In this document: in pieces, positions 5,352-30,283 of the stretch
Layout: each line of letters begins with the position of its first letter
Position numbering within the stretch: the first letter of the stretch is position 1
From: Escherichia coli
GTDB taxonomy: Bacteria > Pseudomonadota > Gammaproteobacteria > Enterobacterales > Enterobacteriaceae
DNA: 64,000 bases
Direction: 5' to 3' (one strand)
NCBI RefSeq assembly: GCF_001677475.2
Contig: NZ_CP015229.1
Made by a program: the position numbers and the translations under genes
Notes under the pieces: model-generated
Seen by the model: only the letters and a program-made list of their open reading frames with translations
Told to the model about the DNA's origin: nothing
Databases searched by the model: none

Positions 5352-5456
<105 letters not shown>

Positions 5457-12894: not shown

Positions 12895-13183
12895 CATGGC
12901 CCCCTAATTCGTGTTACTAGACAACGTTATTCGAGGTTCAATGCGTTTTTATCTGAAGCAACTTCAGTATACCAATAAGTAAGGGTATTCACCGAATTTT
13001 TAAAGGGGGAAACAGATAAATTTTTGCTTTTAAGATTTATATGAACAATAAAACAGCATGTCATTCATATTTTTTTAGCATATTGTGCAATTATTTTGAG
13101 GAAGTGTAGAAATTTTGTGCTCGAAATTTGTAAGTAAAATAAAAAAGCCGGGGCGACCCGGCAAAAACAAAAATCACTGCGTA

Positions 13184-14549: not shown

Positions 14550-14654
14550 TAATCTCTATGCTCCGGCTGAAGGGATGTTTTTGCCGGACACAAAGGATAA
14601 GCGGAAACGTTTTCCTTTGCACGAAAAATAAAGGGCGCGAATGCGCCCTCGTGA

Positions 14655-22070: not shown

Positions 22071-22113
22071 GGTTTATTCCTCATTGAGGGCGCTTTTATC
22101 ATGTGTTGCTTAT

Positions 22114-22140
22114 TTATCGGCAAGGGACGGGTAATCTTTA
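22114..22140 (-). promoter_or_regulatory. Sigma-28 (FliA) class 3 promoter for flgMN
   Basis: Minus strand reads TAAAGATT-N11-GCCGATAA, a near-perfect match to the sigma-28 consensus TAAAGTTT-N11-GCCGATAA. Confidence 0.75.
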
Positions 22141-22805: not shown

Positions 22806-22960
22806 TTTCGCCCCCCAGCCATTTCTACAACGTGAATTGTACCTGTCCGCAATGACCATCAACGGCATAAATAGCGACCCATTTTGCGTTTATTCCGCCG
22901 ATAACGCGCGCGTAAAGGCATTTAAGCTGATGGCAGAATTTTGATACCTGCGGAGGAGAT
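22806..22960. promoter_or_regulatory. Divergent flgA / flgB class 2 (FlhDC-dependent) promoter region
   Basis: Intergenic region between divergent flgA and flgB operon starts; assignment rests on operon architecture, no motif verified. Confidence 0.5.
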
Positions 22961-23796: not shown

Positions 23797-24492
23797 ATGT
23801 CCATTGCGGTAACCACAACCGATCCGACAAATACCGGCGTCAGCACCACCAGCAGTAGTTCGCTCACGGGCAGCAACGCCGCAGATTTACAAAGCAGTTT
23901 TCTGACTTTGCTGGTGGCGCAGCTGAAAAACCAGGACCCGACCAATCCAATGGAAAACAACGAGCTGACGTCGCAATTGGCACAAATCAGCACGGTTAGC
24001 GGGATTGAAAAACTCAATACCACGCTCGGATCTATTTCCGGACAGATTGATAACAGCCAGTCGTTACAGGCCAGTAACCTGATCGGTCACGGCGTGATGA
24101 TCCCCGGCACCACTGTTCTTGCGGGAACCGGCAGTGAAGAAGGGGCTGTGACCACGACCACGCCGTTTGGTGTTGAGTTGCAACAGGCGGCAGACAAAGT
24201 TACGGCCACCATCACCGATAAAAATGGCGCGGTTGTGCGCACCATTGATATTGGTGAACTGACCGCCGGAGTCCACAGTTTCACCTGGGACGGTACGTTG
24301 ACTGACGGCAGCACTGCGCCGAACGGTTCTTACAACGTAGCGATTAGCGCCAGTAACGGTGGTACACAACTGGTTGCCCAGCCGCTGCAGTTTGCTCTGG
24401 TGCAGGGTGTGATCCGCGGCAACAACGGTAATACGCTGGATCTCGGCACTTACGGCACCACCACCCTCGACGAAGTACGGCAGATAATTTAA
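23797..24492 (+). CDS. flgD: Flagellar hook capping/assembly protein FlgD
   Basis: 231 aa; matches recalled FlgD. Confidence 0.93.
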   Translation: MSIAVTTTDPTNTGVSTTSSSSLTGSNAADLQSSFLTLLVAQLKNQDPTNPMENNELTSQLAQISTVSGIEKLNTTLGSISGQIDNSQSLQASNLIGHGVMIPGTTVLAGTGSEEGAVTTTTPFGVELQQAADKVTATITDKNGAVVRTIDIGELTAGVHSFTWDGTLTDGSTAPNGSYNVAISASNGGTQLVAQPLQFALVQGVIRGNNGNTLDLGTYGTTTLDEVRQII

Positions 24493-26497: not shown

Positions 26498-26536
26498 TTG
26501 AACGATTGATGACATTGCAATAAAAGCGAGCGGACT

Positions 26537-27417
<881 letters not shown>

Positions 27418-27469: not shown

Positions 27470-28168
27470 ATGCAAAAAAACGCTGCGCATACTTATGCCA
27501 TATCCAGTTTGTTGGTGCTTTCACTAACCGGCTGCGCCTGGATACCCTCCACGCCGCTGGTGCAGGGGGCGACCAGTGCACAACCGGTTCCCGGTCCGAC
27601 GCCCGTCGCCAACGGTTCTATTTTCCAGTCTGCTCAGCCGATTAACTATGGCTATCAACCGCTGTTTGAAGATCGTCGACCACGCAATATTGGCGATACG
27701 CTGACCATCGTGTTGCAGGAGAACGTCAGCGCCAGCAAAAGCTCCTCTGCAAATGCCAGCCGTGACGGTAAAACTAATTTTGGCTTTGATACTGTGCCGC
27801 GCTATTTGCAGGGGCTGTTTGGTAACGCTCGTGCCGATGTCGAAGCCTCCGGTGGTAACACGTTCAACGGAAAGGGCGGGGCCAATGCCAGCAATACCTT
27901 TAGCGGCACGTTGACGGTGACGGTTGACCAGGTACTGGTCAACGGCAACCTGCATGTGGTGGGTGAAAAACAGATTGCCATTAATCAGGGTACCGAATTT
28001 ATTCGCTTCTCTGGCGTGGTTAATCCACGCACTATCAGCGGCAGCAATACCGTACCGTCTACTCAGGTGGCGGATGCGCGTATTGAATACGTAGGCAATG
28101 GCTACATTAACGAAGCGCAAAATATGGGCTGGTTGCAGCGTTTCTTCCTTAACCTGTCGCCAATGTAA
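27470..28168 (+). CDS. flgH: Flagellar L-ring lipoprotein FlgH
   Basis: ORF 27455..28168; start set at [22 protein letters not shown] (lipobox). Confidence 0.93.
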
Positions 28169-28179
28169 GTGAGGCTGTG

Positions 28180-29277
28180 GTGATTAAATTTCTCTCTGCA
28201 TTAATTCTTCTACTGGTTACGACGGCGGCTCAGGCTGAGCGTATTCGCGATCTCACCAGTGTTCAGGGGGTAAGGCAAAACTCACTGATTGGCTATGGTC
28301 TGGTGGTGGGGCTGGATGGCACCGGTGACCAGACAACCCAGACGCCGTTTACCACACAAACGCTTAATAACATGCTCTCACAGCTGGGAATTACCGTTCC
28401 GACGGGCACCAATATGCAGCTAAAAAACGTCGCTGCGGTAATGGTGACAGCGTCACTTCCGCCGTTTGGACGTCAGGGGCAAACCATCGATGTGGTGGTT
28501 TCTTCCATGGGTAATGCCAAAAGCTTGCGTGGAGGTACGTTGTTGATGACACCGCTTAAGGGCGTTGACAGTCAGGTGTATGCGCTGGCACAGGGCAATA
28601 TTCTGGTTGGCGGCGCAGGGGCCTCCGCTGGCGGTAGCAGTGTTCAGGTGAACCAACTGAACGGTGGACGGATCACCAATGGTGCGGTTATTGAACGTGA
28701 ATTGCCCAGCCAGTTTGGCGTCGGGAATACCCTTAATTTGCAACTTAACGACGAAGATTTCAGCATGGCGCAGCAAATCGCTGACACCATCAACCGCGTG
28801 CGTGGATATGGCAGCGCCACCGCGTTAGATGCGCGGACTATTCAGGTGCGCGTACCGAGTGGCAACAGTTCCCAGGTCCGCTTCCTTGCCGATATCCAGA
28901 ATATGCAGGTTAATGTCACCCCGCAGGACGCTAAAGTAGTGATTAACTCGCGCACCGGTTCGGTGGTGATGAATCGCGAAGTGACCCTCGACAGCTGCGC
29001 GGTAGCGCAGGGGAATCTCTCGGTTACAGTCAATCGTCAGGCCAATGTCAGCCAGCCAGATACACCGTTTGGTGGTGGGCAGACTGTGGTTACTCCACAA
29101 ACGCAGATCGATTTACGCCAGAGCGGCGGTTCGTTGCAAAGCGTACGTTCCAGCGCCAGCCTCAATAACGTGGTGCGCGCGCTCAATGCGCTGGGCGCTA
29201 CGCCGATGGATCTGATGTCTATTTTGCAATCAATGCAAAGTGCGGGATGTCTGCGGGCAAAACTGGAAATCATCTGA
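28180..29277 (+). CDS. flgI: Flagellar P-ring protein FlgI
   Basis: ORF 28177..29277; GTG start at 28180 gives (M)[18 protein letters not shown] signal peptide. Confidence 0.93.
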
Positions 29278-30218
29278 TGATCAGCGACAGCAAACTACTG
29301 GCAAGTGCGGCCTGGGATGCGCAATCACTCAACGAACTAAAGGCGAAAGCGGGCGAAGATCCGGCGGCAAATATCCGTCCGGTGGCCCGCCAGGTGGAAG
29401 GGATGTTCGTGCAGATGATGTTGAAAAGCATGCGCGACGCTTTACCAAAAGATGGTCTGTTCAGCAGCGAGCACACTCGCCTGTATACCAGTATGTATGA
29501 CCAGCAAATTGCCCAACAGATGACGGCGGGCAAAGGTCTGGGGCTTGCTGAGATGATGGTTAAACAGATGACGCCAGAACAACCATTGCCAGAGGAGCCC
29601 ACGCCAGCAGCACCGATGAAATTCCCGCTCGAAACCGTGGTGCGTTATCAAAATCAGACGCTTTCGCAGCTGGTGCAAAAGGCCGTACCACGTAACTACG
29701 ATGATTCGCTGCCGGGTGACAGTAAAGCATTCCTCGCGCAACTCTCGCTGCCCGCCCAACTGGCAAGCCAGCAAAGCGGTGTGCCACATCATTTGATCCT
29801 CGCTCAGGCGGCGCTGGAATCTGGTTGGGGGCAACGGCAAATCCGCCGCGAAAACGGCGAGCCGAGCTATAACCTGTTTGGTGTCAAAGCCTCTGGCAAC
29901 TGGAAAGGGCCAGTCACTGAAATCACCACGACTGAATATGAAAATGGGGAAGCGAAGAAAGTAAAAGCGAAGTTTCGGGTCTACAGCTCGTATCTGGAAG
30001 CATTGTCGGATTACGTTGGGCTGTTAACGCGTAACCCGCGCTACGCCGCCGTGACGACCGCCACGAGTGCGGAGCAGGGGGCGCAGGCCCTACAGGACGC
30101 GGGCTATGCCACCGATCCTCACTATGCCCGCAAACTCACCAACATGATTCAGCAGATGAAATCGATAAGCGACAAGGTGAGCCAAACCTACAGCATGAAC
30201 ATTAATAATCTGTTCTGA
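29277..30218 (+). CDS. flgJ: Flagellar rod-assembly protein / peptidoglycan hydrolase FlgJ
   Basis: ORF 29247..30218; start at [17 protein letters not shown] overlapping flgI TGA (TGATG). Confidence 0.92.
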   Translation: MISDSKLLASAAWDAQSLNELKAKAGEDPAANIRPVARQVEGMFVQMMLKSMRDALPKDGLFSSEHTRLYTSMYDQQIAQQMTAGKGLGLAEMMVKQMTPEQPLPEEPTPAAPMKFPLETVVRYQNQTLSQLVQKAVPRNYDDSLPGDSKAFLAQLSLPAQLASQQSGVPHHLILAQAALESGWGQRQIRRENGEPSYNLFGVKASGNWKGPVTEITTTEYENGEAKKVKAKFRVYSSYLEALSDYVGLLTRNPRYAAVTTATSAEQGAQALQDAGYATDPHYARKLTNMIQQMKSISDKVSQTYSMNINNLF

Positions 30219-30223
30219 ATAAT

Positions 30224-30250
30224 TCAAGTCCGGCGGGTCGCTGCCGATAA
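30224..30250 (+). promoter_or_regulatory. Sigma-28 class 3 promoter for flgKL
   Basis: TCAAGTCC-N11-GCCGATAA; -10 element is an exact match to sigma-28 consensus, about 30 nt upstream of flgK start. Confidence 0.7.
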
Positions 30251-30283
30251 TACTCTGTAATTGAAGGCTTATAAGGAACCTCC

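Follow-up and report, generated by a model that had tools for sequence, protein, structure and literature searches.

We identified positions 30224-30250 on the plus strand of the window (the whole 64,000-nucleotide stretch of DNA analysed here) as, almost certainly, the class 3 promoter of flgKL that depends on sigma-28 (FliA/RpoF). The site combines the features of a sigma-28 class 3 promoter, namely the -10 element, a -35 element that resembles the consensus, the 11-nt spacing, an orientation toward late flagellar genes and conservation at orthologous loci. A first-pass annotation had already proposed a sigma-28 promoter for flgKL at this place, and the proposal is borne out by a FliA ChIP-seq site and a SELEX peak on the identical K-12 sequence as well as by recovery of the motif in 80/80 species. 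The flgKL promoter is already documented in E. coli K-12 and adds no new biology; its value is one of annotation, as it would mark the point in this strain from which FliA drives transcription of the junction genes and the small RNA FlgO independently of FlhDC. The evidence for FliA occupancy, holoenzyme binding and FliA-dependent expression comes from the K-12 literature on the identical sequence, by extension of which the promoter should be active in the source strain.

Architecture of the flgJ-flgK gap

The promoter sits within the 65-bp gap between flgJ and flgK (30219-30283), where it had been placed before, and on the plus strand it points at flgK and then flgL, with the flgK ATG following 33 nt further on (Table 1). 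Its -10 element, described earlier as exact, does match the consensus throughout and consists of the extended -10 GC (30243-30244) and the core CGATAA (30245-30250), which includes the essential CGA. The -35-like element claimed at 11-nt spacing was found as described: TCAAGTCC agrees with the sigma-28 -35 consensus TAAAGTTT at 5/8 positions, with mismatches at positions 2, 7 and 8, and 5 nt separate it from the flgJ stop codon, a TGA at 30216-30218. While flgJ is the final gene of the class 2 flgBCDEFGHIJ operon, flgK is the first gene of the promoter described here (its product shares 99.1% identity with full-length K-12 FlgK) and flgL the second gene of the operon (99.4% identity to K-12 FlgL). 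The open reading frames flanking the gap were assigned by NCBIfam to FlgI, FlgJ, FlgK and FlgL, with a convergent RNase E gene downstream, a gene order that corresponds to the E. coli/Salmonella flagellar region I layout; the K-12 name of the promoter at 30224-30250 is flgKp. Ahead of the flgK ATG (30284), a Shine-Dalgarno sequence AAGGAA occupies 30273-30278, leaving 5 nt between the two. Upon folding the predicted leader together with the early coding sequence, we obtained no significant structure (z = -0.69), which speaks against a structured regulatory leader for flgK.

Table 1. Features of the window discussed in the text (+ and -, strand).
Feature	Position	Strand	Basis
flgJ coding sequence	29277..30218	+	NCBIfam TIGR02541, 8e-131; tblastn with K-12 FlgJ residues 1-313, 98.4% identity
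-35 element TCAAGTCC	30224..30231	+	sequence read
Spacer GGCGGGTCGCT, 11 nt	30232..30242	+	sequence read
-10 element GCCGATAA	30243..30250	+	sequence read; 8/8 to consensus
Predicted transcription start, likeliest G30257	30256..30259	+	inferred from aer and P. aeruginosa fliC geometry
Predicted 5' UTR, ~27 nt	30257..30283	+	sequence read
flgK, hook-filament junction protein 1 (HAP1), 547 aa	30284..31927	+	NCBIfam TIGR02492, 1.9e-100
flgL, hook-filament junction protein 2 (HAP3), 317 aa	31939..32892	+	NCBIfam TIGR02550, 1.1e-105
FlgO sRNA region, flgL 3' UTR	32892..32969	+	gap-free alignment to K-12 flgO (b4826; K-12 record 12987-13064)
flgMN class 3 promoter TAAAGATT-N11-GCCGATAA, inside flgA	22113..22140	-	1 mismatch to consensus
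Class 2 (FlhDC-dependent) flgB promoter region, flgA-flgB divergent spacer	22861..22904	+	FlhDC half-site-like match
Fimbrial major subunit	50596-51129	-
Fimbrial chaperone	49844-50521	-
Fimbrial usher	47241-49814	-
Two fimbrial minor subunits		-
346-aa open reading frame, possibly adhesin	46217-47257	-	no NCBIfam family
rne 5' UTR element	36297-36633	-	Rfam match
SraB sRNA	38494-38662	+	Rfam match
PyrC leader	14550-14599	-	Rfam match
ES036 (CssrF) sRNA	5377-5419	-	Rfam match

Motif statistics

The motif score on its own makes a weak case for the flgKL promoter. Exact copies of GCCGATAA are enriched in the 64-kb window, with 7 found against 2.1 expected and 0/100 shuffles reaching that number, and only 2/7 of them are preceded at 11 nt by a usable -35 element, those of flgMN (1 mismatch) and flgKL (3 mismatches). 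When the composite TAAAGTTT-N11-GCCGATAA was searched for with up to 3 mismatches, the window yielded 3 matches against an expectation of 0.65, among them the flgKL site and the flgMN promoter. Using a weight matrix built from 24 strong FliA ChIP-seq sites (Fitzgerald 2014, PMC4183435), from which flgKL was excluded, we obtained a score of 16.3 bits for the flgKL site, equal to that of the fliC promoter and fifth in the window, where the flgMN promoter scored highest (30.3 bits). Sites scoring like flgKL are expected at ~0.15 per simulated 64-kb window, and ~13% of random windows have one; scaled by our own arithmetic to the ~38 usable positions of the gap on one strand, the chance rate falls to ~5e-5. 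The flgKL motif is thus unremarkable window-wide, yet highly non-random for its position and orientation.

A site inside flgD, CAAAGTTACGGCCACCATCACCGATAAA at 24195-24222 (+), illustrates the limits of scoring: at 18.5 bits it lies above the flgK promoter and has the same sequence in K-12, yet it is absent from the 52 reported FliA ChIP-seq peaks (Fitzgerald 2014, PMC4183435), so that sequence alone is no proof of function. The -35 element of this site begins with C, and a position-1 change of that kind cut the activity of the aer promoter ~10-fold (Hollands 2010, PMC2859248). Other sigma-28-like sites that score about as high as the flgK site or higher were seen at 62212-62239 (+), 52073-52100 (-) and 49704-49731 (+). 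With a better-scoring site that has no reported FliA peak and a rank of only five, we rejected motif score as sole evidence, and the case for the flgKL promoter rests instead on position, conservation and published experiments.

Conservation across Enterobacteriaceae

We found the promoter to be conserved in every species in which its locus was recovered. Scanning species-representative genomes for FlgK gave 80 loci from 80 Enterobacteriaceae species in >20 genera, including Escherichia, Citrobacter, Salmonella, Enterobacter, Leclercia, Lelliottia, Kosakonia and Kluyvera as well as Buttiauxella, Cedecea, Atlantibacter, Trabulsiella, Yokenella and Franconibacter. An unconstrained best-match search for TAAAGTTT-N(10-12)-GCCGATAA in the 110 nt preceding flgK recovered TCAAGTnn-N11-nCCGATAn in 80/80 species, the spacing always being 11 nt. 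Across the 81 sequences that include the window, TCAAGT and CGATA are invariant, while -35 positions 7 and 8 vary; the regular expression behind this tally presupposed TCAAGT and CGATA, and the invariance itself rests on the unconstrained search. The full -10 octamer GCCGATAA is kept in 58/81 sequences, and the spacer, 11 nt long in 81/81, takes 69 distinct sequences. In the motif-anchored alignment, the information per column amounts to 1.71 bits in the -35 element and 1.82 bits in the -10 element, compared to 0.44 bits in the spacer, 0.77 bits in the upstream 25 nt and 0.59 bits in the downstream 50 nt.

Fixed elements and a fixed spacer length around a drifting spacer sequence are the signature expected of a two-block promoter under selection, of which the footprint across species offers a clean textbook case. 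Conservation in 80/80 other species settles the non-randomness of the site. We also entertain, as a speculative and rather improbable idea, that the invariant TCAAGT (whose C at position 2 replaces a consensus A), the free tail and the rigid 11 nt reflect a selected sub-consensus design as opposed to simple mismatch tolerance, or else a preference of sigma domain 4 for certain bases that is masked in the TAAAGTTT consensus. If true, the sub-consensus -35 element might tune how strongly or when flgKL (and FlgO) are expressed relative to fliC and the chemotaxis operons. As a separate observation, most genera other than Escherichia, Citrobacter and Salmonella (Enterobacter, Kosakonia, Leclercia and similar) have a flgK leader that is ~9-10 nt longer, in which the conserved block CAGGACTCGTGTCTGAAAGT follows the -10 element and precedes the Shine-Dalgarno sequence; the lineage of the window lacks this block.

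The Salmonella enterica flgKL locus exemplifies the pattern: TCAAGTCC-N11-GCCGATAA stands at the equivalent position, 32 nt before the ATG, whereas the spacer, ACGTCGTAGCT, is entirely unlike GGCGGGTCGCT of the window and the leader differs at several positions. The Salmonella operon shares the dual class 2/class 3 logic described below, according to the part of the literature (Kutsukake & Ide 1995; Wozniak 2010) that is cited in PMC4183435.

Published experiments on the identical K-12 sequence

No base differs between the window and K-12 over the stretch that begins with the -35 element and ends with the flgK ATG, so that the 28-mer, the start codon and the leader with its Shine-Dalgarno sequence are all those of K-12 flgKp; the 65-bp gap and the flanking flgJ, flgK, flgL, FlgO and rne are likewise shared. 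The nearest difference is T30223 (C in K-12), and a few differences of synonymous scale occur in the flanking coding sequence. The 28-mer TCAAGTCCGGCGGGTCGCTGCCGATAAT is the FliA ChIP-seq site reported for flgKL in K-12, with a FAT of 47 (Fitzgerald 2014, PMC4183435, Table 2). RNA-seq values at this site were 318 in the motile strain and 138 in the fliA deletion, a drop that was not flagged as significant in the table of that study, and fliA overexpression in an flhD deletion strain brought flgK back to the wild-type level or above (Fitzgerald 2014, PMC4183435). In genomic SELEX with the reconstituted sigma-28 holoenzyme, a strong peak in the flgJ>flgK spacer reached an intensity of 27.2, the highest peak, 46-fold, being that of rpoF itself (Shimada 2017, PMC5493296); transcription of flgK in vitro by the sigma-28 holoenzyme was reported by Kundu 1997, as cited in Shimada 2017 (PMC5493296). 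Microarray measurements gave a decrease of 5.5-fold for flgK and 4.9-fold for flgL upon fliA deletion, and an increase of 2.2-fold and 1.8-fold, respectively, upon sigma-28 induction (Zhao 2007, PMC1935009).

The flgKL promoter has been counted among eight well-characterised sigma-28 promoters, and no binding of CRP to the flgKL fragment was observed (Hollands 2010, PMC2859248). In the same study, mutations of T1, A3 and G5 in the -35 element of the aer sigma-28 promoter cut activity 4- to 10-fold; all three bases are retained in TCAAGTCC. Several validated FliA sites, such as those of modABC and fliL, also start with TCAA (Fitzgerald 2014, PMC4183435). Kim 2012 and Ettwiller 2016 list no transcription start site for flgK or at the predicted start coordinates, Cho 2014 gives expression values only, and the cross-species FliA papers do not discuss flgK specifically.

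Class 2 read-through and alternative explanations

The first-pass annotation had assigned the hook-associated proteins to class 3 expression. The FliA-driven input stands for K-12, but flgKL is not purely class 3, as transcripts of the class 2 flgB operon extend into its genes as well, and in K-12 this route accounted for much of the flgKL mRNA under the published conditions (PMC4183435). RT-PCR in K-12 showed FlhD-dependent transcription of flgKL within the FlhDC-dependent flgB operon, across the flgJ-flgK boundary, and FliA contributed little to dual-regulated transcripts under the conditions of Fitzgerald 2014 (PMC4183435); deletion of fliA lowers K-12 flgK just 2-5-fold (PMC4183435, PMC1935009). 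A terminator scan of 29900-30500 found none between flgJ and flgK, which fits the read-through or dual-class model. The read-through transcripts originate at the class 2 promoter region of flgB, located in the flgA-flgB spacer. This region contains the best FlhDC-half-site-like match of the window (AACGGCATAAATAGCG, 1 mismatch, 22861-22876) and, as a sigma-28-like -10, a copy of GCCGATAA at 22897-22904 that has no sigma-28-type -35 element and lies 57 nt ahead of the flgB ATG. Control of flgKL is therefore dual-class, with class 2 read-through during first assembly and an FlhDC-independent sigma-28 input, and the latter has been linked to swarming and rapid filament repair in Salmonella work cited in Fitzgerald 2014 (PMC4183435).

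Under laboratory conditions, the promoter is likely quantitatively auxiliary to this read-through. We consider it somewhat probable that a fuller version of the same account holds, in which the promoter is real, most flgKL mRNA of growing cells comes from class 2 read-through, and sigma-28 is mainly of use for FlgO output and whenever FlhDC input is low, as in swarming, in the repair of filaments or late in assembly; such an account refines the identification of a class 3 promoter and is compatible with it. The FlhD-dependent RT-PCR product across the flgJ-flgK boundary (PMC4183435), a gap without a terminator-like site and the sigma-28 dependence of FlgO (PMC10578931) all point this way. Against an auxiliary role, the FAT of 47 and the SELEX intensity of 27.2 mark an intrinsically good promoter, the microarray drop in the fliA deletion (PMC1935009) is as large as 5.5-fold, and the strict conservation over 80 species argues for a substantial contribution to fitness.

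Accounts that deny the motif its role fare far worse. That it is a chance match, with flgKL transcribed solely by read-through from the class 2 promoter of flgB, could draw on the moderate score, on comparable or better matches elsewhere in the window at non-reported FliA sites and on the ~13% of random 64-kb windows that hold an equally good site. We give this idea practically no credence and regard it as effectively refuted by conservation and published binding data, as both elements and the 11-nt spacing are kept in 80/80 species while the spacer drifts, the identical K-12 sequence is bound by FliA in vivo and in vitro, and FliA alone expresses flgK in an flhD deletion strain. Scarcely more credible is a sigma-70 or FlhDC-dependent promoter that would lie in the gap or at the 3' end of flgJ, drive flgKL and leave the sigma-28-like motif incidental. 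A scan of 29900-30500 did return TGAACA-16-AATAAT at 30196-30223, matching 9/12 positions, but 0.8 such matches are expected by chance for the 1 found, and no FlhDC box of the class 2 type (AAYGC...AAATAGCG-like repeats, <=3 mismatches) occurs in 28143-35126, the best match of the window being in the flgA-flgB spacer. Together with the lack of CRP binding to the flgKL fragment (PMC2859248) and the need for FliA in flgK expression in the flhD deletion (PMC4183435), the chance-level hexamers and the missing FlhDC box led us to reject this promoter. We also deem it improbable, if less so, that the promoter is intact but silent in the source organism through a break elsewhere in the regulon, for instance in flhDC or fliA, as in non-motile Escherichia/Shigella lineages. 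Both loci lie outside the window, and the lineage reaches at most 98.5-98.7% identity to any complete E. coli genome; however, 14/14 flg genes from flgN through flgL are full length and encode proteins 94.5-100% identical to those of K-12, the FlgO region is intact, as is the sigma-28 promoter of flgMN, and exact FlgK copies exist in many independent assemblies, which together argue for ongoing purifying selection. We accordingly retain the class 3, sigma-28-dependent promoter of flgKL as our reading of the site, and the late-flagellar circuitry held in the window appears intact in a divergent E. coli-like lineage.

Proposed mechanism

Upon completion of the hook-basal body, the anti-sigma factor FlgM would be exported and FliA freed. 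FliA-RNA polymerase would then bind the promoter with sigma domain 4 on TCAAGTCC, domain 3 on the extended -10 GC and domain 2 on CGATAA, where domain 2 would flip out the A at -11, the register being set by the 11-nt spacer. These contacts follow the sigma-28 open-complex structures, where domain 4 engages the -35 element, the extended -10 GC is recognised by an arginine of domain 3, and the base flipped by domain 2 is the non-template A at -11, the A of CGATAA (PMC12784957). In the aer promoter, +1 falls 6 nt beyond the octamer (Hollands 2010, PMC2859248), and in P. aeruginosa fliC, with the octamer (-15)GCCGATAA(-8), +1 lies 8 nt beyond it (PMC12784957); these two geometries would place the start of flgKL at 30256-30258, within the range given in Table 1. 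With +1 ~6-8 nt past the octamer and most likely at G30257, the mRNA would have a ~27-nt leader and encode FlgK and FlgL. The transcript would end at the terminator past flgL, and the Hfq-binding sRNA FlgO would be processed from its 3' end, in line with the report that FlgO is sigma-28-dependent and processed from a parental mRNA (Melamed 2023, PMC10578931).

The FlgO region of the window ends in the operon terminator, GCCCGC...GCGGGC followed by T7. In this terminator (32935-32969, +), GCCCGC replaces the GCCTGC of K-12, which forms a G-U wobble in RNA, and the stem is perfect here; three more substitutions relative to K-12 occur in or adjoining the FlgO region. At the gathering threshold, an Rfam scan of the whole window gave nothing in or near the flgJ-flgK gap and matched no family to the FlgO region. 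Its four matches (Table 1) are all expected for this chromosomal region.

Related FliA sites and the lineage of the window

The flgMN promoter is a sister site of the flgKL promoter within the window, and its sequence is identical to the entry in Table 2 of Fitzgerald 2014 (PMC4183435). Like flgKL, it has an exact -10 element and an 11-nt spacer and serves a dual-regulated operon behind a class 2 promoter; unlike flgKL, its -35 element has 1 mismatch rather than 3, it lies within the flgA coding sequence rather than between genes, and it scores 30.3 rather than 16.3 bits. Intragenic FliA promoters (Fitzgerald 2014, 2018; Plitnick 2020) share with flgKL the sigma factor and the reliance on the -10 element. 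Those intragenic sites are reported to be mostly unconserved between species, and their authors suggested an origin by drift, whereas the flgKL site is intergenic, drives structural genes and recurs in 80/80 species. In the flgF-flgG spacer (26498-26634), we observed 137 bp where K-12 has 171 bp, alignable only over the last ~35 bp; the spacer here contains a G/C-rich segment with the look of an inverted repeat, CCCTCGCCCCTTTGGGGAGAGGG..., while K-12 has the REP-like-looking GCCGGATAAGGCGTTTACGCCGCATCCGGC. The K-12 flgF>flgG spacer gave a weaker SELEX peak with the sigma-28 holoenzyme, of intensity 6.7 (Shimada 2017, PMC5493296).

The flg cluster of the window is 98.0% identical to that of K-12 and 87-91% identical to those of other Escherichia species, and among ~5,425 complete E. 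coli genomes the best identity is 98.5-98.7%, with none at >=99% for the segments compared (29700-30800, 30190-30300 and 43844-45200), that is, no complete E. coli genome reaches 99% for flgJ-flgK or fabF. Exact FlgK copies and an identical 72-bp promoter and leader were nonetheless found in independent draft assemblies, for example GCA_016125675.1. The source is a genuine, though under-sampled and divergent, E. coli-like lineage missing from the complete-genome set.

The interval between fabF and pabC (45090-51480, -) holds a chaperone-usher fimbrial operon of six genes, which looks like a lineage-specific acquired fimbrial island. A megablast comparison of the operon with 5,426 complete E. 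coli genomes gave no match; it aligns with other ushers over just 14-16% of its length, at 69-71% identity, and has a GC content of 42-47% against 50-54% in the flanks. Several NCBI draft assemblies contain the exact usher in the same setting. The four E. coli genomes U12A-U15A match 29700-30800 in two pieces, with ~776 bp of extra sequence and an annotated IS1 transposase. Their flgJ is apparently broken, with a fragment annotated as 'glucosaminidase domain-containing protein', which points to an IS1 element inserted into flgJ a short way ahead of the flgK promoter.
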